Origin: an uncultured virus (IMG/VR IMGVR_UViG_3300021197_001002)
Lineage: Duplodnaviria; Heunggongvirae; Uroviricota; Caudoviricetes
Reading direction: 5' to 3' (one strand)
Virus record (IMG/VR): IMGVR_UViG_3300021197_001002
Length of the DNA stretch: 36,877 nucleotides
The notes under the pieces were generated by a model, which saw only the letters and a list, made by a program, of their open reading frames with translations, searched no databases and was not told the origin of the DNA. The position numbers and the translations under genes were made by a program. This document shows positions 1 to 34,918 of the stretch, piece after piece; within the stretch, counting starts at the first letter, position 1; every line of letters begins with the position of its first letter.

Positions 1-1010
1 TGCCATACATCGTTATGCTTCTCTCTTGTAATATTTGTTGAAGTGTATGATGAGATGTCATCAACGGTTTGGAAGATAACGCTATCAGTAGCACGTTTTA
101 GCGCACGTATAACCGATTCAGGAGTACGACGTACAGCCATGATTCCATGCTTCTTGAGGAAGGCACATACGTGGTCATTTACGCTATCACGTACAAAGAC
201 TATACCATGCTTATTATCGAATGCTTCCACGATACGCTTTGCATTTGAAATCAAATCAGCCTTACCTGCGGATTTGTATGATGAATATGATGAAGCATCA
301 ATCTGAACCTGTACATTCTCTTCATTCTTTTCAACATCGAGTCCTGTATTAATGAGCATGAAATGACGATAGGATTCCTTTTCATCCTCTACTTCAAGCA
401 CGAAGTCCTTGTTGACAATCACACCACCAAAGAGGTATGAGTCATCAAGTGAGCCACCCGGAAACGATACTACACGAACTGATTCAGCACTTCCTGCTTG
501 TTCAACAGCAGACACACATAGTTCTGATACCTTGTCGAGAGCGTTTTCAAGAGTCTTACCAGTAATCGCAGTACGTGCAATCTTAAGGTATTCTTCTCTT
601 CCTTCGGCTAACATAGCAACCTCATTACTTAGGTATGTAGTTGCCATGAGAGATGCCTCATGATACCCACGACAGATGACGTTGGGGTGTAGACCACGAG
701 CGAAGAGAGATTCTGTGTTACCGAGTAACGCACCTGCTAATACGACAGTACTTGTTGTACCATCGTAGCATAGGTTCTCTTGTGTCTTTGCTACTTCTGC
801 AATCATCTTACCACCGGGATGTGATACGTCTACTTCACGTAGAATGGTTGCGCCATCGTTTGTTACGATGACATTCCCATGCCCGTCTACGAGCATCTTA
901 TCCATACCCATTGGTCCTAACGTGGACTTCACGGTATCGGCAATTGTACGTGCCGCACGTATGTTCATCTGTTGTGCATTTGTTCTTCCTAAGTCCTGTT
1001 CTTTACTCAT
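1..1010 (-). CDS. ths: Group II chaperonin (thermosome subunit), 3' end beyond the window
   Basis: Absent from the ORF track because the stop is outside the window. Manual translation from ATG 1010 gives MSKEQDLGRTNAQQMNIRAARTIADTVKSTLGPMGMDKMLVDGHGNVIVTNDGATILREVDVSHPGGKMIAEVAKTQENLCYDGTTSTVVLAGALL, with the group II motifs TLGPxGMDKM, VTNDGATIL and DGTT. Confidence 0.97.
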   Translation of the reverse strand, partial: MSKEQDLGRTNAQQMNIRAARTIADTVKSTLGPMGMDKMLVDGHGNVIVTNDGATILREVDVSHPGGKMIAEVAKTQENLCYDGTTSTVVLAGALLGNTESLFARGLHPNVICRGYHEASLMATTYLSNEVAMLAEGREEYLKIARTAITGKTLENALDKVSELCVSAVEQAGSAESVRVVSFPGGSLDDSYLFGGVIVNKDFVLEVEDEKESYRHFMLINTGLDVEKNEENVQVQIDASSYSSYKSAGKADLISNAKRIVEAFDNKHGIVFVRDSVNDHVCAFLKKHGIMAVRRTPESVIRALKRATDSVIFQTVDDISSYTSTNITREKHNDVW

Positions 1011-1015
1011 GTTGT

Positions 1016-1618
1016 TCACCATTTTACTTCTATGTCTACTAATTCTCCCGTGTCTACTGCACGAGAACGAACGTAGCCTTCGCTCTTACCAAATTGGTAT
1101 AAGTCATATGTAAGTTGAGCATCGCTTAAGCAATACTTAGCCACCTCATCATATTTCCCTTGCCTCCATGCTTTAGGCGCATCCTCGCTGTTCATAAGTT
1201 TGTTGTCGCTTAAGGTATGTTTAACCAGTTCTTTGAGGCTGGTCATGACTTTCTGTTGTGTCATAGCCGCTTTATTGACGAGGTTCTTTGTATCAATGAC
1301 GCTTTCTGTTTTCAGCATATCACCTGCTGTCCAACAGTCCAATGCATCCCGTAATACAGGGAGGTCGAATGCTTTGATGTTATGACCGATAATGATACCG
1401 CCCTTCTTGACGTGTGCATCTAAGTCATCACCTAATGTACGAGGGTGTAGTGCCTTTACCGTAGCATCAACAGACAATGATTTGTTACAGTAGATGTTTC
1501 CATCCTCTCCGTTCCATGTAGCCACTACTGTAGGCTCGAAGGATGCGGTCTTATCCCATCCCCCTATTTCCCAAGAGTAGTTACCCGTTTCAATATCTAA
1601 TGCCATTATGTCACTCAT
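1016..1618 (-). CDS. RNase H-fold DEDD 3'-5' exonuclease-like protein
   Basis: ExoI-like ALDIETG, ExoII-like GHNIKAFDL and ExoIII-like YCLSD. Start trimmed to ATG 1618, which overlaps the upstream stop. Confidence 0.85.
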   Translation of the reverse strand: MSDIMALDIETGNYSWEIGGWDKTASFEPTVVATWNGEDGNIYCNKSLSVDATVKALHPRTLGDDLDAHVKKGGIIIGHNIKAFDLPVLRDALDCWTAGDMLKTESVIDTKNLVNKAAMTQQKVMTSLKELVKHTLSDNKLMNSEDAPKAWRQGKYDEVAKYCLSDAQLTYDLYQFGKSEGYVRSRAVDTGELVDIEVKW

Positions 1619-17380: not shown

Positions 17381-17620
17381 TCACTCGTCATCGTTCTGTT
17401 TATTATTCCTTTTGATTTTGTATACTGAAAATATCTCACAATGTGTACATGGTACAAGTACCAAGTCATGTGCATCAAGGAAGTGCATGTCCATGTTTTC
17501 TGCACCACAAACATCGCATACCCCTTCACCTTCTACTGTGTAGAGGACTTTCAAATCGCCCCCTTCAAGCCTGATGGCATGATTGAGAACCATATCAGTT
17601 GCTCGTTTAACGATGCTCAA
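17381..17620 (-). CDS. Small Zn-ribbon protein
   Basis: CDVC...CTHC; start uncertain (TTG 17620 overlaps the upstream stop). Confidence 0.6.
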   Translation of the reverse strand: MSIVKRATDMVLNHAIRLEGGDLKVLYTVEGEGVCDVCGAENMDMHFLDAHDLVLVPCTHCEIFSVYKIKRNNKQNDDE

Positions 17621-18648
17621 ACGGTCATCTCCATTACCAAGTCCCAAGCCTTCTGCTTACGTCGTGCGAAAGGACCAAAGATTGCTGATTCAGTAGCCTT
17701 GATACTCTTCTCACCGTTGCGTAGTGTAGTAGCGTGATGGTCAAAGTATTCGGTTGCCGCATTGTATGCCGCCCATGCTGTACCTTCCATGTCTCCAATA
17801 AGATTCTTCTGTGTCGCAAGAAGCGATACTACCTTGTTGAGTTTGTTACGGGTACGGGTGTCGTCTGAAATCTCGCCATTCTCTTCACGCTTGAGGCCGA
17901 GTGTATCTACGAAGTATTCCTTCATGTCATCCAATTCCATCTCGACAGTCAATAGTGATTCGGCTTTATCGCCCCATGTAATGAAGTCCTGATTCATGAT
18001 ACCCAATGACTCTCTTGCCTCATCAACAGCATTGCCAAGTTTACTTGTGTGTCGCTTACTCATTACTGTAGTCGCATTACTTAGAGCGAGTGAGAGTGTG
18101 TTTTGACATACCACACGAATAGGTGTGGGTAAGAACTTTACTGCACCTGTACCATCGTGGTTGTTCGTGATAAGGAAGTATTGCTCAATAGGGTCTTGCC
18201 CATTGATGAGAATGGTTTCAGGCATCTTTGCCAATACCCATACCTTCTCACCGTTACCGAGCGCACCTGCTACTTCGATGGTCGCCTCTTGAGTTTGAAG
18301 AATCTCATCCATGAATGAGAATGCATCTGCATTCTGCAATGCTGTCCATACTTTACCTACTGATTTACCGTTACGAGTGAGTGGGATAAGCCCATCATCA
18401 CTCTCACGGAATACACCAAAGGTATTCGGTACAGGTTTAGATGCTTCGATAGAGAAGTGTTCGTGATTGGAAAGTTCGCTATAGAATAACGGTTTCTTAA
18501 CCACTTGCCAATTTAGATTTGCCTTGACTAATGCATCATGAGATGTCATCAGACCGCTTACGTTTGTTCCCAGTCCATGCCACGGAGTACTCCCCGCCCA
18601 TGCTGTCATGTGTTGCCCTGTTTCTGTTACTGCTATATTGTGTGCCAT
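17617..18648 (-). CDS. DUF932-family (phage/plasmid) protein
   Basis: MAHNI...PWHGLG, LQNADAF, AGALGNGEKVW, HDGTGA, TPIRVVCQNTL, RHT and GTAWAAYNAATEYFDH. Confidence 0.92.
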   Translation of the reverse strand: MAHNIAVTETGQHMTAWAGSTPWHGLGTNVSGLMTSHDALVKANLNWQVVKKPLFYSELSNHEHFSIEASKPVPNTFGVFRESDDGLIPLTRNGKSVGKVWTALQNADAFSFMDEILQTQEATIEVAGALGNGEKVWVLAKMPETILINGQDPIEQYFLITNNHDGTGAVKFLPTPIRVVCQNTLSLALSNATTVMSKRHTSKLGNAVDEARESLGIMNQDFITWGDKAESLLTVEMELDDMKEYFVDTLGLKREENGEISDDTRTRNKLNKVVSLLATQKNLIGDMEGTAWAAYNAATEYFDHHATTLRNGEKSIKATESAIFGPFARRKQKAWDLVMEMTV

Positions 18649-21991: not shown

Positions 21992-22489
21992 TCACCGCCA
22001 ATCTTTGTTGTCATGTATTCTTCTTAGGCTAACCGTATTGAAAACATGGTCATAGAGTATTTGCTTTGATGCTACTTTCTCTTTGAAAATATCTCCAATC
22101 TTCGGGCGTAATAATGCCATCAAATCGGTTACACTATCCGTATCGGAAGGATGTAAACCCATTTCAGAAATCAAAGTACGCAAGACAATGTAGCCCACGC
22201 CTCCTGTACGGTCCCGTCCATGTACACAATGGAGTAAGACATCCTTACCTTCATCGAGCAAACCAAGCACTAACTCGGATGCATGTTGCCAAATGTTCGG
22301 GTCGTCGTTATGCGCTCGGAAGTAGTAGTGATGTCGCTCTTGTTTATCGCTATCAATAAAGCGAGGTGGGTAACGACACAACGTAACAACCGTGTGTTTA
22401 GGTTCGAGTGTATCTCGAAAATCTTCAAGGTCACACATAGTGAGTGACGAGCCATTCTTAAATGTATATGATATATTTTCCATGTTCAT
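21992..22489 (-). CDS. Dual-specificity/tyrosine phosphatase (CX5R)
   Basis: VLLHCVHGRDRTG signature. Confidence 0.9.
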   Translation of the reverse strand: MNMENISYTFKNGSSLTMCDLEDFRDTLEPKHTVVTLCRYPPRFIDSDKQERHHYYFRAHNDDPNIWQHASELVLGLLDEGKDVLLHCVHGRDRTGGVGYIVLRTLISEMGLHPSDTDSVTDLMALLRPKIGDIFKEKVASKQILYDHVFNTVSLRRIHDNKDWR

Positions 22490-27869: not shown

Positions 27870-28087
27870 TCTGTCACCTCCAGATGTGATGGATGAGGTA
27901 AATTCACTTGTTTAATTGCTTTAACTGCGCCTATATTCCATCTGTCATCTATCATCTGTGCGAGTTCAAGGATGAGGTCTTTGTCAAAGTTGTAGTAGTT
28001 ATCATTCATTGCATCAATGAGTTGCCTTACAGTATCACCGTAGCCAATCATGTGCATCATTAAGTCAAACATTTCTTCGGTAATCAT
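27866..28087 (-). CDS. Hypothetical protein
   Basis: 73 aa ending LEVTE (GGAGGTGACAGAATGA). Confidence 0.7.
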   Translation of the reverse strand: MITEEMFDLMMHMIGYGDTVRQLIDAMNDNYYNFDKDLILELAQMIDDRWNIGAVKAIKQVNLPHPSHLEVTE

Positions 28088-28563
28088 TATTCCACACCTT
28101 CCAATTGCATGTCCAATGTGAGTGCGGGTCTGTTGCCCTCTAAGACATCGAGTAAGTCATTCTGTTCGCAGAAGTCAATCAATGGTTGTGTGTTCATGTT
28201 CGCATCAAACCATAGAGATATTCCGCCATTGTCTGCAAACGGATTGTGTGCTGTGAACTCCCATGTTTCAGTTCCCAACCAAAGGGTGTAGCCATCATCG
28301 AATCGTGTTACCGTAACGCTACGCTCGTACACCTTCTCAACGGAAGCGAACGACATGTACTTTGGTTTGACCGTCGTTAGTGTGTCCATGAGGAACGTCG
28401 GTGCTTGCATCTGTGTTGCGAAACCGTAGTCTCGGTTGACGGTTACGTTACCATAACCCTGTAGGTGAAGGTTGCCGTTGTTTACGACACGTACTTGTAT
28501 CACCGCACCATCTAAGTCTCTCATTTTCTTGTATTCATCTGTTGTATATTGTTCTTGTAACAT
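28087..28563 (-). CDS. Hypothetical protein
   Basis: 158 aa, beta-rich; first gene after promoter copy 7. Confidence 0.78.
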   Translation of the reverse strand: MLQEQYTTDEYKKMRDLDGAVIQVRVVNNGNLHLQGYGNVTVNRDYGFATQMQAPTFLMDTLTTVKPKYMSFASVEKVYERSVTVTRFDDGYTLWLGTETWEFTAHNPFADNGGISLWFDANMNTQPLIDFCEQNDLLDVLEGNRPALTLDMQLEGVE

Positions 28564-29555: not shown

Positions 29556-31151
29556 TCACGCAGTAGCCTCGACCTCTTCCTTCTTCTTGACAATCATTGT
29601 AAGAGGTGTAGGCATATGTTCTGAATACTCTTGCACCTTCTTACGCAACGCAGGTTTCTTGAGGATAGAAACAAACATCGCTTGGGGTGTCTGCTCATCT
29701 TCAATGTATACATCAGGCTTGAGTTGTATATCCCATGTTCCTGTAGTTACATGTGCTTCGGGGAGTGCTACTTTCGCATTGAAATCTGAATCGAGTTCTT
29801 TGTGAATAGGAATCCCTGTGTCAGTAGATAGACCGACAGCATTGATGTTATCAGCGTATGCTTGAGCCGCTTGTTCAGAAGTGAATATATATGGAAGTGT
29901 AGTATTTGAATGACCTAACTTATACACATATACCCACGAACCATTCTTGTATACTTGGTCACGCTTGAGGTATGGCATGAGAACAAGTACTTGTTGGTAT
30001 TGTACCTTGTCCTTTGGAACCCAATAGTATGTGTGAATCTTTTGACCGTACTGTTCATTGGTACTCTTGATAGAGTACACCCATCCATTGATGGTGTCGC
30101 CAACCTTACGTTGCATTGAGTTGCTTAGGAGTACTTGCTCACGTACTCTATCAAGCCAACTCCATTGTTGCCACTCGAATGTACGACCACGACCTGCTGT
30201 TACTTGTCGGCATCGGCCACTCTTGACCATACGGTTGAGAGCCTTGTTGATTACTTTGATGACAAACTTATCACATACATTCTGCATGATGGCTCGCTCG
30301 TGTTGTACAAATTCAATGACCCTTCGATGTGTTGAATGGTTTTTATTCAGATGTTTATCGTTTGAATAGTAACTCGAACATAGTTTGTTGTTGTACAACT
30401 GTAGCCTTGATGGTCGCTTACCCTTGAAGTCCCATGTAAGTAGTTCAGGTGAACACACCCACCCTGAAACGTTGTATAGTGATGGGGAGTGTAACTCACA
30501 TGTACCATCCGTATGTGAACAATATCCACTTCCTGTTTTCTGATAGCCAACCTTATCAGGTATACATTGTAATACCTCTTGGGACATATCTACGTAGCCA
30601 TTATTGAACTCTCTATTAGAAGAAGTACTCTCTATGAACTCGGCGGGTACATCTATATCACCCATAAGTGTAGTAGCATAATAGTCATGCTGTTGTGTAA
30701 GAGCCGTGAGTACTGGACTACGTGCTGGTAAATCTTCAAAGACCCAATCAACAAGTGCTTGTAACTTACCCTTTCTTACGGGTGCTGTGTAATAGTTGTA
30801 TATATTTCCACGATGTAAATTCCATAGTACAGGTTCACCGCATACATTTTCGGGGTCCTTTCTGTAATATCCATCGGCAATCATTTGCGTATCGTAGAGA
30901 GCCGCCTTCCTTGTGCGCTCATTCAACATGTCCTTCGCCGTGAAGTGTTGGTCAGGTCCGAGTGAGACAAGTGTATACACAAGAGCCGCATCCATTGCAC
31001 ACCCCGCCCTTACTATGTCCATTGCCTTACCAATACCTAATGCGGTAATGGTTTCATCATCCGTGAACTGTAGTGTATCACCAATCAGTCCTTCTTGCTT
31101 CCATATATCTGCGCTTCTATATCCTGTAAAGTTTGTACTGTATCTTCCCAT
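29556..31151 (-). CDS. Large hypothetical protein (531 aa)
   Basis: Long ORF, first after promoter copy 8; no recognised catalytic motif. Confidence 0.85.
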   Translation of the reverse strand: MGRYSTNFTGYRSADIWKQEGLIGDTLQFTDDETITALGIGKAMDIVRAGCAMDAALVYTLVSLGPDQHFTAKDMLNERTRKAALYDTQMIADGYYRKDPENVCGEPVLWNLHRGNIYNYYTAPVRKGKLQALVDWVFEDLPARSPVLTALTQQHDYYATTLMGDIDVPAEFIESTSSNREFNNGYVDMSQEVLQCIPDKVGYQKTGSGYCSHTDGTCELHSPSLYNVSGWVCSPELLTWDFKGKRPSRLQLYNNKLCSSYYSNDKHLNKNHSTHRRVIEFVQHERAIMQNVCDKFVIKVINKALNRMVKSGRCRQVTAGRGRTFEWQQWSWLDRVREQVLLSNSMQRKVGDTINGWVYSIKSTNEQYGQKIHTYYWVPKDKVQYQQVLVLMPYLKRDQVYKNGSWVYVYKLGHSNTTLPYIFTSEQAAQAYADNINAVGLSTDTGIPIHKELDSDFNAKVALPEAHVTTGTWDIQLKPDVYIEDEQTPQAMFVSILKKPALRKKVQEYSEHMPTPLTMIVKKKEEVEATA

Positions 31152-31174: not shown

Positions 31175-31197
31175 TTATTCTCTTTGCCGATTTATAA
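31175..31197 (-). promoter_or_regulatory. Conserved viral promoter element (copy 8)
   Basis: Exact 23-mer 23 nt upstream of ATG 31151. Confidence 0.85.
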
Positions 31198-31209
31198 ACC
31201 AACTCGGTT

Positions 31210-32478
31210 TCACTTCAACCCCGCCGCACAAGGATAGCAAGTGATTGCTTTTCCTGAAACGTTTATGTGTTTGATGAATCGTAGTTCCTTGCGCTTCAAG
31301 CATGAAGTGCATTGTGCTTTGGCAGGGACAAGTCTTGTTGGTGGCGAGAACTTTGTCATGTCTATCTCACGTATCTCACATGAGGCACATACTTCTGAAC
31401 CATCAACGAAGTCACCCACGTTTCTTTTCGTACCGCACTCCATACATTCCTCTTCCTTCTTCTTCTCGGCATCGTTGTGCATATCGTAATCACAATCCAT
31501 ACACATCTTGTCGTCGGTAATGAACTCACCATCACAAGCAGAACATGATGTAGGTGTATCAGGTTTCTTCATAGGTGCATTACAAGTGCCGCAGTTATCA
31601 AACTCATAGTCATCAGGATAGTATTCCGCACCGCATTGCCAACAGTTGTCTTGCATGGGTGGGGCATCATCATCCTCGTTTACGAAAGACCATTCCTCGG
31701 AGGCGAATACATCATCAAATATATCATCATCCTTAGCCAATGCTTTCTTCTGCTTGGCGTACTGTGTAGCGTAGTAACCATTGTATGAGTATTGACTTGC
31801 GTATGTAGCAATCTTACCCTCGCCTACATCAATACCACATACGTCTGCGATGTACTGTTGCTGTGAGTTAGTCTCGACAGCATGAGAACAATGTTTGTCT
31901 CGTACCCAATCAATGAGGTCAGCCGCAGTATCGTAACAAGCACGTACCTCATCGTTACCAAAGAGGTAACGGAAGATAGCCAACTGTACACCTGTACGAC
32001 CATGACCACCTGCACATTGAACTGATACAGATTTGATATTGTTCACTCGTATGTCATTGACAAGTGCATACCAAAAGGTAACACTCGAAGCAGGTATACC
32101 AAAGTCAGGGAAGTCCAACTTGATGAGTGTCTTAGGCACAGCCTTCACAATGTGAGAGAAGGCAGACCAATGCTTAGGTACACCAACTGTACCATCGTCG
32201 CTACTACTTGAACCACCCATAGTCTCGCTCGGACCCATAGCAAGTTCGGGAAGTGGAGACATCTTGTGCCACCCACCTGCTCGGTTCTTACCACCTGCCC
32301 ATACTTCAATACCATCATGAGTAGTGAAGATAAGTTTCTGTCCTGTGTGACAGGATGCTTTGCTTACGTGCGCTGTTGTTGTTGTCTTGTTTATCTTGTT
32401 CATGTTCTTCACCTTCTTATTGTTGTCCTTTCGCTTTTGCTTCCTCGTCGTCTTATTCTTCCTCTTGCCCATTGTCAT
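31210..32478 (-). CDS. CX5R phosphatase (PTP/DSP fold) with basic N-terminal tail and eight C-terminal CxxC pairs
   Basis: FPDFGIP (WPD-loop-like), QCAGGHGRTG and AVETNSQQQY (Q-loop); CWQC, CGTC, CSAC, CMDC, CMEC, CASC, CTSC, CYPC. Confidence 0.9.
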   Translation of the reverse strand: MTMGKRKNKTTRKQKRKDNNKKVKNMNKINKTTTTAHVSKASCHTGQKLIFTTHDGIEVWAGGKNRAGGWHKMSPLPELAMGPSETMGGSSSSDDGTVGVPKHWSAFSHIVKAVPKTLIKLDFPDFGIPASSVTFWYALVNDIRVNNIKSVSVQCAGGHGRTGVQLAIFRYLFGNDEVRACYDTAADLIDWVRDKHCSHAVETNSQQQYIADVCGIDVGEGKIATYASQYSYNGYYATQYAKQKKALAKDDDIFDDVFASEEWSFVNEDDDAPPMQDNCWQCGAEYYPDDYEFDNCGTCNAPMKKPDTPTSCSACDGEFITDDKMCMDCDYDMHNDAEKKKEEECMECGTKRNVGDFVDGSEVCASCEIREIDMTKFSPPTRLVPAKAQCTSCLKRKELRFIKHINVSGKAITCYPCAAGLK

Positions 32479-34861
32479 CCTCTCCTTTCTTCATAAGTTT
32501 TGAATAGAAATCTTTCTGCAAGTCATGTGGCATGGCATCGAGTAAAGCATGAGTGGATGAGTTTACTTGTGCAAACAGTTGAGTGAATTTATTGTAGTGG
32601 TAATCTGTAAGCATGTTGACATCAACTCCTTGCGCCCATGCGTAGAATGATGGTACTACACCCATGTCATCCTGTGTGTTTTGATTCTCCTGAATGTTCT
32701 GCTTGTACACCAATACTCTTGCATGGACGAGCATTGAATACTCTTCGTCAACTGTTGACCCTTCTTGTTCTTCATCAGGGAAGTACACACCATCTTTGTC
32801 CTGTGATAGATTTACTTTCATAGGGATAGTAGGTATGATAGATGCTTTGATTTTATCAGCATACATACTGTTACAAGTATTACAATGTTTTGAACCACAA
32901 GGAATGAATAGGTTGTTGCTTGAGTCTCCGTACTTACCTGTATGCATTTGACTGGATGCATATTTCACAACTGTTTCTTCTTGCTCGGCAATCTCTTCGG
33001 GTAAGTCATGGCGTGTGTAGATTGGATTCGCTCGTAGCCCTGTGAGTGTTTGCTTCTTGATGTACTTGAAGATGTGAGTAACATCCTTGACCTCATCCAT
33101 ATCAGGTACGCTCTCGTGTGCGGCCTTCGCCGCATAGTATACTTGGAAGAACTGTTCAGGAGTGAGTGTGTTTTGCTTAGGGTCAGTACCCCAGTCGAGT
33201 GCATTCTTGGAGATGAACTTGTTGAAGAAGAACCCTGTGTTGTGTTGGTTGTTCTCGCAAGTGTTAGCCTCTCCGATTGTATCAAGTAGGTTCTGCTTCG
33301 TCGGATTGTTGAGAAGTTTCTTGACTACTTGTGTGAGTTTGATTGTAGCGTCGATGGATTCTTTGTACTTGGAACCACCGTAGCCACCACTCCATCCACC
33401 GTGGAACTGTTTGCTCAACCACTTGAGTTGCATGATGATGCTGTCGATAGTGATGGGCTGTCGCTCGATGTTGTAGTAGTAGTGCTGACGGTTGCTTGAC
33501 ATGATTCGTGTATTATGTATGTCTGTCCAATTGTCATTGTATAATGCTTGGAGTACAACAGGTACAAGGAGGTCGTGCTTTTGATTACGTTGAGAACGAG
33601 AGTGTCGCAACTCACCTGTGCCGATTGACATACCTGAATTGATAAGCCAACCTACAAAGACACCACCAAAGAATGCTGTGTTGCGTAGGTCAGATAGTGG
33701 TGCGCTTGCGAACTGATGGAAGTGATTGGAGAGCCAACCGTATTGTCGTGCGTAGTCGTAGAGTCCGACTTCGATACCATCAGTAAACGAATCAACGAAT
33801 GGGAATGGGTTGTATGGTTTAGGCTCAAAGGATAGGTCAGTCGTAACCCAACCTGCCACAACCTCTTGCCATGTCTCGCCTACGTTAAGTGGTGTCATGA
33901 AGTATGGAACTTCATACTTACGACATTGCCCTGCGTGGTGTGAGTTGAGTGATGCACCTGAACCCTTGTGGTATACGAACGTACCCTTTGGTGGATTGCA
34001 TCGAAGCATCTCTTCCATGCGAGCCAACTCGGTATCGCTTCCATCTTCAACGATGTGAATGTGTAAGACTTCTTCACGCCCTGTTGGAATGCTACCCTGT
34101 ATAGTTACACCTTCAGGGGCGGGAGTAAGTGGTGCGTGAGGTACTGTCTTGCCACGTAGTTGTACCATGTAGTGCATGTGTTGTATCATGTGAGATTTTC
34201 TCATGGCATCCATGATGTCTGATTCACCTGTGCGTTGAGATACGAACTCGACTTCAACCATCTTTTTGTCAGCACCGAGCGTGTGTAGTGAAGTATCAGA
34301 TGCATAATCAGATACGTGTGGGAGAGTAACGATGAGGTCACTTGTCCCTGCGGTAACACCGTCATGGTTATCACCCATACGAATGTTGCTTGTCGGTTGA
34401 ACAACTGCTGATGCATCTGCCTTGACGAACTTCTGTATCATGATAGAACCAAAGGGGTCAACATACCCATGCTCATACATTGGCTTGGCTGATGTATCTT
34501 TGGAGAACATTGTGTCGATGATGCGTTCAACAATCTCCATCGCTTCGTCGTATGTAGTAGCCGCACTTGATTCAAGAACACCGGGTCGTGCGACGAGTGG
34601 GCAAGCACGTATGAAGTATGTCTCGTAGAGTACACCGTTCGCACCTCGCTTCTCAAAGAACGCATCTGCTTGGGTCAATGCGTCTGCCTGTACCGAGTCA
34701 AGGTCATCCTGTGTGAATGGCATGGTAATATCACCATCCTCGAACATCCCCTGTGGGAGAAGTTGTATTCGTTCCGTGTCAAGGACACGCCAGTTAACTT
34801 CCAACGCACCATTCTTGACAGCCTTAACTGCTTTAACATAATCATCTGCTTTTTGTGACAT
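32453..34861 (-). CDS. PEP-synthase/PPDK-like dikinase: ATP-grasp and phosphohistidine swivel domains plus an unrecognised C-terminal domain
   Basis: FIRACP..RPGVLES, MIQKFV..ASAV, GDNHDGVTAG, VEVEFV and YMVQLRG parallel the PEPS/PPDK nucleotide-binding motifs; GASLNSHHAGQCRKYEVP parallels GGxTSHAAIxxRxxGIP. Confidence 0.72.
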   Translation of the reverse strand: MSQKADDYVKAVKAVKNGALEVNWRVLDTERIQLLPQGMFEDGDITMPFTQDDLDSVQADALTQADAFFEKRGANGVLYETYFIRACPLVARPGVLESSAATTYDEAMEIVERIIDTMFSKDTSAKPMYEHGYVDPFGSIMIQKFVKADASAVVQPTSNIRMGDNHDGVTAGTSDLIVTLPHVSDYASDTSLHTLGADKKMVEVEFVSQRTGESDIMDAMRKSHMIQHMHYMVQLRGKTVPHAPLTPAPEGVTIQGSIPTGREEVLHIHIVEDGSDTELARMEEMLRCNPPKGTFVYHKGSGASLNSHHAGQCRKYEVPYFMTPLNVGETWQEVVAGWVTTDLSFEPKPYNPFPFVDSFTDGIEVGLYDYARQYGWLSNHFHQFASAPLSDLRNTAFFGGVFVGWLINSGMSIGTGELRHSRSQRNQKHDLLVPVVLQALYNDNWTDIHNTRIMSSNRQHYYYNIERQPITIDSIIMQLKWLSKQFHGGWSGGYGGSKYKESIDATIKLTQVVKKLLNNPTKQNLLDTIGEANTCENNQHNTGFFFNKFISKNALDWGTDPKQNTLTPEQFFQVYYAAKAAHESVPDMDEVKDVTHIFKYIKKQTLTGLRANPIYTRHDLPEEIAEQEETVVKYASSQMHTGKYGDSSNNLFIPCGSKHCNTCNSMYADKIKASIIPTIPMKVNLSQDKDGVYFPDEEQEGSTVDEEYSMLVHARVLVYKQNIQENQNTQDDMGVVPSFYAWAQGVDVNMLTDYHYNKFTQLFAQVNSSTHALLDAMPHDLQKDFYSKLMKKGEDDNGQEEE

Positions 34862-34886
34862 ACTTATTCAACTCCGTTTCTCATCT

Positions 34887-34909
34887 TTATTCTCTTTGCC
34901 GATTTATAA
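34887..34909 (-). promoter_or_regulatory. Conserved viral promoter element (copy 9)
   Basis: Exact 23-mer 25 nt upstream of ATG 34861. Confidence 0.85.
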
Positions 34910-34918
34910 AGGAGACTC

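Follow-up and report, generated by a model that had tools for sequence, protein, structure and literature searches.

A dikinase-like protein with a helical third domain and its CX5R phosphatase partner in an uncultured marine phage: a probable fused form of a split siphovirus module

The window analysed here is a 36,877-nucleotide stretch of DNA from an uncultured marine phage (IMG/VR record IMGVR_UViG_3300021197_001002), comprising a replication and early region in which every long open reading frame (ORF) lies on the minus strand. The subject of this report is a pair of overlapping genes, encoding an 802-aa dikinase-like protein and a 422-aa CX5R cysteine phosphatase, flanked precisely by two successive copies of a 24-nt repeat (34887-34910 and 31175-31198), an arrangement that an earlier note on this DNA, made from its letters alone, had described correctly. 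The features of the locus are as follows.

32453..34861, minus strand: 802-aa dikinase-like protein, with a predicted ATP-grasp domain (residues ~1-245), a phospho-His swivel domain (~250-345, with His308 in SHHAGQC) and a helical domain (348-802)
33935..33943, minus strand: codons of S307-H308-H309, His308 being the predicted phospho-carrier
32822..33820, minus strand: core of the helical domain, residues 348-680, from conservation and the domain model
31210..32478, minus strand: 422-aa CX5R cysteine phosphatase, with a basic Lys/Arg-rich N-terminal tail, a catalytic core (~36-222) and four zinc ribbons (eight CxxC)
34887..34910, minus strand: 24-nt repeat copy whose end lies 25 nt before the dikinase start codon; candidate promoter or regulatory element of the phage
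31175..31198, minus strand: 24-nt repeat copy beyond the 3' end of the phosphatase gene, 23 nt before a 531-aa gene, opening the next unit

Both frames are taken from a program-made ORF list, and contain only nested ORFs, all of 106 aa or fewer. They share 26 nt, or 20 nt if translation of the phosphatase begins at Met3, the conserved start in homologues.

The partnership of the two genes is most apparent from their linkage. ORFs were called in 38 related loci, drawn from viral contigs of 8.8-115 kb, and compared with the window proteins; two loci (L012 and L020) were omitted from the count, the dikinase gene being fragmentary in both. In 35 of the 36 loci with a full-length dikinase ORF, the gene immediately following the dikinase, in the same orientation and mostly overlapping it by 4 nt, encodes a phosphatase homologue; the sole exception (L016) has just 1066 bp of downstream sequence. 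This persists while identity to the window dikinase drops to 22%. By contrast, the SNF2 helicase gene, directly upstream of the pair in the window, is found anywhere from 11 genes before to five after it in relatives, and the 531-aa gene from two before to nine after, so that the pair has been kept together amid rearranged surroundings. As the loci are related to one another, 35 is not a number of independent events. The linkage nonetheless supports the phosphatase as an obligate, translationally coupled partner of the dikinase, and the earlier note's proposal that the genes be sought as neighbours in other viruses is borne out. The phosphatase might instead be a host-signalling effector that shares a transcription unit with a functionally unrelated enzyme, in keeping with the usual view of phage and virus protein tyrosine phosphatases (PTPs) in the accessible text of PMC12038007, and with the presence of another CX5R phosphatase elsewhere in the window (21992-22489). 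Such independence is very improbable given adjacency in 35/36 loci at such divergence while other genes shuffle, and given the joint occurrence of the same three families in an unrelated lineage of siphoviruses, as described below.

The dikinase family is represented by 60 clusters, all metagenomic, in a word-indexed search, and by 309 cluster representatives at E <=1e-3, 48 of these at <=1e-30, in an exhaustive search. Among 185,579 species genomes it was found at a single locus, a contig of a metagenome-assembled genome with phage gene order, and the family therefore looks viral. Some members are far longer, at 1100-1412 aa (P0080, P0084, P0085, P0094, P0110 and others), with the dikinase-like core at ~210-1200, flanked at both termini by extensions of 200-550 residues for which Pfam has no match. 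A scan of 26 long or distant members (880-1412 aa) for fused domains gave one marginal zinc-ribbon match and nothing else, and a hidden Markov model of the phosphatase family detected no fused phosphatase in proteins P0001-P0204. The window stretch itself recurs in marine metagenomes, with at least half of the sampled words present in 16 runs; the runs in which it was detected belong to 11 studies, one of which is possibly the source. Parts of both genes, and the junction between them, are covered by contigs from two metatranscriptome libraries of a single study; this is a weak sign of expression, since DNA can be present in such libraries and contigs cannot show transcript ends, nor do stretches left uncovered carry any meaning.

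The larger protein is predicted to possess the ATP-grasp and His-swivel chassis of the dikinases. The phospho-His-like SHH motif picked out in the earlier note at 33935-33943 coincides exactly with the codons of S307-H308-H309, and H308 proved invariant in 79/79 aligned homologues, with S307 at least 90% conserved. Four residues of the ATP-grasp part, R85, E205, Q234 and R236, are also invariant in this 79-sequence alignment, and we see in them a likeness to the Arg, Glu and Q-x-R positions in pyruvate, phosphate dikinase (PPDK). An AlphaFold (AF2) model of the 802-aa protein, built from the same alignment (pLDDT 87.7, pTM 0.80), places His308 at the N-terminus of a helix spanning 308-315. When compared using Foldseek, rifampin phosphotransferase (RPH) and PPDK lead the list for this model, followed by other ATP-grasp enzymes, with weak E-values of 2.8e-4 at best, and structural alignment of residues 1-345 with PPDK chain 19-514 takes in the central swivel domain. 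The model thus contains both the PPDK_N-type ATP-grasp domain at the N-terminus and, in central position, the swivel (PEP-utilizers) domain bearing its conserved catalytic His, as had been predicted from the letters.

Sequence searches are far less informative. The mobile domain of the PEP-utilizers (PF00391) gives weak matches in 6/35 homologues (best E 5.9e-4), and in profile comparison with canonical phage PPDK-like proteins the His motif alone aligns (TSHAAVVAR, E 0.012-0.17). The 802-aa protein has no match in Pfam, PHROGs, NCBIfam or PADLOC, none among PDB sequences by single protein or profile, and none among INPHARED phages by blastn or tblastn. Because sequence similarity between the N-terminal half and canonical dikinases is almost nil, and the profile aligns only the His motif, the chassis assignment rests on predicted structure; it is supported by fold and conservation, as opposed to sequence homology.

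From residue 353 onward the model is almost wholly helical, with strand or bridge marks isolated and one residue each in both the full-length model and that of the C-terminal domain folded alone (pLDDT 84.8). The third domain is therefore not a PEP/pyruvate barrel, and no C-terminal TIM barrel (PEP-utilizers_C) was found in residues 353-802, either in the models or by Pfam, in agreement with the earlier note, which had recognised no pyruvate-binding barrel. Foldseek comparison of this domain with the PDB returned generic helical matches only (best E 0.35; MATE transporters, talin), as did comparison with BFVD (best E 0.012), neither of which proves a new fold, and residues 348-680 had no usable match in the ESM Atlas. 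Conservation within the domain is pronounced: R372, H382, E417-x-R419-H420, R458, W490-x-x-x-x-G495-G496, H540-N541 and K548 are invariant or nearly so, and H640, C655, C660 and C663 form a probable zinc knuckle. The earlier note had set out four outcomes that would speak against it, namely a model lacking the ATP-grasp or swivel fold, a non-conserved His, an ordinary PEP-binding barrel, and genes unlinked elsewhere; as none of these came about, both chassis and partnership are supported.

In the 422-aa partner, the CX5R loop and eight CxxC pairs described from the letters can be read directly from the translation. The P-loop is QCAGGHGRTG, a CX5R-T sequence with C155 and R161, and the Cys pairs are CWQC, CGTC, CSAC, CMDC, CMEC, CASC, CTSC and CYPC. 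Across 29 sequences, D125, C155, R161, T162 and Q206 are invariant, giving the family a C-x5-R(S/T) P-loop, and D122, P124, D125 and P129 are invariant within a WPD-like general-acid loop, D(F/W)PD(F/Y)xxP. A phmmer alignment with PTPN3 (E 0.007) pairs FPDFGIP with WPDHGVP and includes the CX5R loop and Q-loop. The Pfam PTP-SAK model gives E 4.1e-5 and 24.1 bits, below its cut-off of 27, with double zinc ribbons also matched; models of the dual-specificity phosphatase (DSP) type match below their cut-offs, and precomputed annotations assign PF00102 or PF22784 to a few homologues. By sequence, the phosphatase thus appears nearest to classical PTPs (PTPN3) and DSP-type models. It falls in PHROG 17568 (E 3e-13). 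This PHROG bears the name 'thymidylate synthase', which appears to be a propagated annotation error; the members examined match CX5R phosphatases, and one of them, DLP5 gene NC_042082 88778-89062, is a 'tyrosine phosphatase family protein' in GenBank.

The second CX5R phosphatase of the window is a 165-aa protein (21992-22489, minus strand; P-loop HCVHGRDRTG) encoded just upstream of a DNA methyltransferase gene. It matches Pfam Y_phosphatase3 just above the cut-off (E 1.1e-4), and aligns with the partner family at the P-loop only (E 0.011). With this protein the window has two phosphatases, as do the cultured carriers of the module discussed below.

These conserved residues bear on two alternative roles for the partner. 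In the first, the phosphatase-fold protein would be a carrier in a phosphorelay resembling the sugar phosphotransferase system (PTS), passing phosphate from His308~P to Cys155 and on to a target, steered by the basic tail and zinc ribbons. The strict adjacency and translational coupling of the genes, the invariance of C155 and R161, and the futility of a writer and eraser within one operon would all suit a relay, and there is precedent in the PTS chain (His -> His -> Cys -> sugar), where the cellobiose-type EIIB has a low-molecular-weight-PTP-like fold and a phospho-Cys. The partner, however, has an invariant general acid, Asp125, and a Q-loop Gln, Gln206, which are features of hydrolytic PTPs, the latter being expected to place water for Cys~P hydrolysis, and cultured phages have two separate phosphatases of the partner family that lack zinc ribbons, making a relay improbable. 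In the second, the phosphatase would regulate the dikinase by dephosphorylating His308 or the neighbouring Ser307, much as PPDK and PEP synthase (PEPS) are controlled by regulators, the PDRP and PSRP proteins, which are encoded beside ppdK or ppsA and act by phosphorylating a Thr close to the catalytic His. Gene adjacency and the conservation of Ser307 beside His308 fit this idea, whereas PDRP and PSRP belong to an unrelated family (DUF299), a short lytic cycle offers little obvious need for such control, and the two phosphatases per module in cultured phages would be left unexplained; regulation of this kind is judged quite improbable. Complex prediction for the full dikinase with phosphatase residues 36-222 scored 0.00, a value obtained without controls that carries no weight for or against binding.

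What links this pair to better-known viruses is a set of separate genes in cultured siphoviruses. Cultured-phage relatives of the phosphatase were found only in Vibrio, Stenotrophomonas and Rhodobacter siphoviruses, groups reported in the accessible text of PMC12038007 to encode a viral 'PPDK'. In phages J26, DLP3, RcZahn and KarBoss the order is 'PPDK', one to three small ORFs, a CX5R phosphatase, a ~340-aa protein and one further gene, the block adjoining DNA polymerase I in the annotated records. The fifth gene encodes a second CX5R phosphatase of PHROG 17568 in RcZahn and KarBoss, so that this PHROG matches four cultured-phage phosphatases, two from each; in J26 it belongs to PHROG 25950, which has a function-less label, and in DLP3 it is annotated 'thymidylate synthase', although its authors report a phosphatase domain in this gene (PMC7326821, accessible text). 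The ~340-aa protein is PHROG 20946, and the helical domain of the window protein is homologous to it: against a four-protein PHROG 20946 profile, hhalign gives 95.65% (E 1.1e-8) over window residues 411-550, and against single members 93% (E 3e-7), 93% (E 3e-7) and 56% (E 1e-4). The motifs ExRH, W-x-GGYGG and HNNG-x-x-FNK are common to both. By tblastn, the PHROG 20946 protein occurs in 40 phage records (Vibrio 33, Stenotrophomonas 4, Rhizobium 2, Rhodobacter 1), and the PPDK-like protein in 62, including 34 from Vibrio, 4 from Stenotrophomonas, 2 from Rhizobium and 1 from Rhodobacter, the rest being mostly short or unrelated.

That the parts are fused in one lineage and encoded by adjacent genes in another argues that they work together. 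From these sequence comparisons, the window pair appears to be the fused form of a widespread three-part phage phosphotransfer module, a form that the earlier note overlooked. We consider it probable, at somewhat better than an even chance, that the pair constitutes a phage-specific, ATP-driven phosphotransfer module and the fused version of the split siphovirus one.

The cultured-phage relatives are called PPDK in annotations and in a modelling paper (PMC12038007 and PMC9229204, in their accessible text), the latter type of work including one published model in which J26 ORF98 was built as a PPDK with a barrel. Taken with the ATP-grasp and swivel fold common to PPDK, these names would favour a genuine PPDK or PEP synthase, an auxiliary metabolic enzyme for interconverting pyruvate and phosphoenolpyruvate (PEP). 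This is hardly credible for the window protein, with its barrel-less, helical third domain, and the cultured versions match PPDK_N and PEP-utilizers only: the J26 'PPDK' (ORF98, L039 14495-16570) matches these two models and not that of the barrel, and RcZahn gp6 (L041 3025-5229) matches TIGR01828 over positions 12-523 of 865 with a score below the cut-off. The auxiliary-metabolic-gene reading of 'PPDK' in PMC12038007 and related genome papers is doubtful, and the annotations 'PPDK' and 'thymidylate synthase' in cultured phages are very probably wrong. A literature search returned genome reports, in which the cultured genes go by the names 'PPDK', 'tyrosine phosphatase' or 'thymidylate synthase', and the one modelling paper, with no functional study of the phage 'PPDK' or PTP genes, subscription journals and supplements lying outside its coverage.

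If the module reading is correct, the ATP-grasp domain, whose fold is predicted, would load a phosphate from ATP onto His308 of the swivel, which would then deliver it to the phage-only helical domain. There, the invariant polar cluster E417, R419, H420, R458, W490, G495-G496, H540, N541 and K548 would likely form the acceptor site, at which the phosphate would be handed to an acceptor other than pyruvate. The CX5R phosphatase would most likely hydrolyse the phospho-product, or might alternatively trim a pyrophosphorylated product or reset the phospho-enzyme. The earlier note had proposed a writer/eraser pair; its chassis and partnership have held up, while a shared target and a use in host takeover or counter-defence stay conjectural. 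The simple form of that proposal is weakened because co-transcribing a writer with its own eraser looks futile, a difficulty that also counts against the module reading as a whole. Other points on that side of the balance are the near absence of sequence similarity to canonical dikinases noted above; that we infer ATP use, His phosphorylation and any acceptor for every family member; that homology to PHROG 20946 spans only ~120-140 residues of the helical domain; and that the preference for a nucleic-acid acceptor, discussed next, draws weakly on gene context and a single report of restriction resistance, in a phage (DLP3) with further candidate genes for modification, among them one for a glycosyltransferase (PMC7326821, accessible text).

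Among acceptor classes, a nucleotide or nucleic-acid-linked acceptor is ranked, tentatively, above a protein or another small molecule. It is favoured because both versions of the module lie among replication genes and the DNA of one cultured carrier is restriction-resistant, that of DLP3 having withstood all 15 enzymes tried (PMC7326821, accessible text). The basic tail and zinc ribbons of the partner and the zinc knuckle of the dikinase are further reasons for leaning towards nucleotides or nucleic acids. A more specific form of this idea, in which a nucleotide or DNA base would be phosphorylated or pyrophosphorylated on the way to hypermodified DNA, lies between unlikely and tentatively possible.

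A protein acceptor is less favoured and regarded as unlikely, albeit with three hints, none of them decisive. The WPD-like, CX5R and Q-loop motifs of the partner align with those of PTPN3, which is specific for phosphotyrosine. Secondly, phenolic hydroxyls are phosphorylated by relatives of the chassis, namely HpeI, which is among the fold matches, and phenylphosphate synthase. The third hint is that a barrel-less PPDK derivative serves as a regulatory kinase in M. tuberculosis (PMC13400623, accessible text). Drawn to its conclusion, this would give a His-swivel 'protein-tyrosine (or other hydroxyl), water dikinase' acting on host or phage proteins via His308~P, with the PTP reversing the mark; such a protein-kinase system, unrelated to the Hanks-type and BY-kinases, is something of a long shot.

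The His-swivel dikinases form a small group that combines a common ATP-grasp/His chassis with varied acceptor domains, for pyruvate, rifampin, glucan or phenols. To these the present family would add an acceptor domain that is new and confined to viruses, together with its obligate partner, a cysteine phosphatase. What is new here is the homology of the helical domain to the free-standing PHROG 20946, which ties the window pair to the split module and therefore makes its biology testable in cultured Vibrio, Rhodobacter, Rhizobium and Stenotrophomonas phages. The finding also matters for auxiliary-metabolic-gene surveys, into which the doubtful 'PPDK' annotation feeds. Should a nucleotide, DNA base or host protein turn out to be the acceptor, phages would have in this module a new means of modifying DNA, controlling nucleotide pools or taking over the host.

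The pair occupies one of several units into which the region is divided by the 24-nt repeat, TTTATAAATCGGCAAAGAGAATAA.

3027, 10857, 14436, 20455, 21307, 25531, 28586, 31175 and 34887, minus strand: the nine copies of the 24-nt element, partitioning the replication region into units

At up to three mismatches, all nine copies are on the minus strand, against 0 expected from 100 shuffles, and both copies flanking the pair end 23-25 nt 5' of a start codon. In relatives L001 and L002, whose dikinases share only 46-48% identity with the window protein, a 19-nt core of the repeat also sits shortly before the dikinase gene. A sigma-70 consensus scan gave nothing above chance in the repeat and gene region, and no terminator was found on the coding strand in the scanned region. 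The copies had been called promoters in the earlier note: the repeats are real, and judging by position and conservation the element is probably a phage-specific promoter, a role that remains inferred. Its core is conserved in L005 as well as in L001 and L002, and the copy at 34877-34915 is a site of breaks or branches in assembly contigs from several runs.

The surrounding genes encode a family-B DNA polymerase, clamp loader, nucleases, two DNA methyltransferases, a GroEL-like chaperonin and the SNF2 helicase. The chaperonin (3-1022, minus strand) matches Cpn60_TCP1 (E 7e-71), and a DUF932 protein (17617-18648, minus strand; E 5e-51) lies within the replication region. The 531-aa protein (29556-31151, minus strand) belongs to no family, having a weak DUF1376 match (E 0.018), and its gene is within a few genes of the pair in most relatives, switching sides. 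A 140-160-aa protein with invariant Q23, H33, Q35, N43-R44 and Y46-G47 is encoded at 28087-28563 (minus strand) in the window and in relatives (e.g. L006 10185-10607), in many of which its gene comes directly after the phosphatase gene. The 158-aa form has no Pfam family and is unrelated to J26 ORF99 (E 0.2); it may be a further part of the module, or a mere neighbour.

Compared with known systems, the window protein resembles PPDK and PEP synthase in its ATP-grasp and swivel domains, and differs in having a helical third domain where PPDK has a TIM barrel, and in having no Pfam or NCBIfam match. RPH (Listeria; 5hv1/5hv3/5fbs) is among the top fold matches of the chassis, yet its order is ATP-grasp, rifampin-binding domain and C-terminal swivel, whereas the swivel of the window protein is central (250-345), and the NCBIfam RPH models do not match the window protein.

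The plant system cited in the earlier note, in which glucan water dikinase (GWD), a His-swivel dikinase, is opposed by a CX5R phosphatase (SEX4 or laforin) acting on the same substrate, survives as an analogy only. GWD, whose domain order differs from that of the window dikinase, contains carbohydrate-binding modules and, at its C-terminus, a nucleotide-binding domain, and its phosphatases also carry carbohydrate-binding modules; by Pfam, no such domains were found in the window pair. The window phosphatase is nearest to classical PTPs, with no laforin- or SEX4-type enzyme among its matches.

VadK (Rv1127c) of Mycobacterium tuberculosis is, like the window protein, a dikinase chassis without a pyruvate barrel, a PPDK derivative that autophosphorylates and acts as a regulator; the abstract of PMC13400623 reports no helical acceptor domain or phosphatase partner for it. 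The cultured-phage 'PPDK' scores 414.6 bits, below the cut-off of 456, against NF004531 (534 positions, 'pyruvate, phosphate dikinase'), a model to which the window protein has no match and which presumably represents the Rv1127c type.

The split module (PHROG 18609 + 20946 + 17568) is carried by cultured phages of the Vibrio SIO-2/VHS1/J26/Virtus group, Stenotrophomonas DLP3 and DLP5, Rhizobium RHph_TM16 and Rhodobacter RcZahn. The phage lineages differ, the window having PolB, an SNF2 helicase and a clamp loader, and the cultured carriers PolA. The window has a single adjacent phosphatase with zinc ribbons in place of two short ones, a chassis too diverged for detection as PHROG 18609 or PPDK_N, and a helical domain fused to that chassis in place of a separate gene. 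What the two versions share is the homology of the helical domain, a PHROG 17568 phosphatase, the fold of the chassis and a setting among replication genes.

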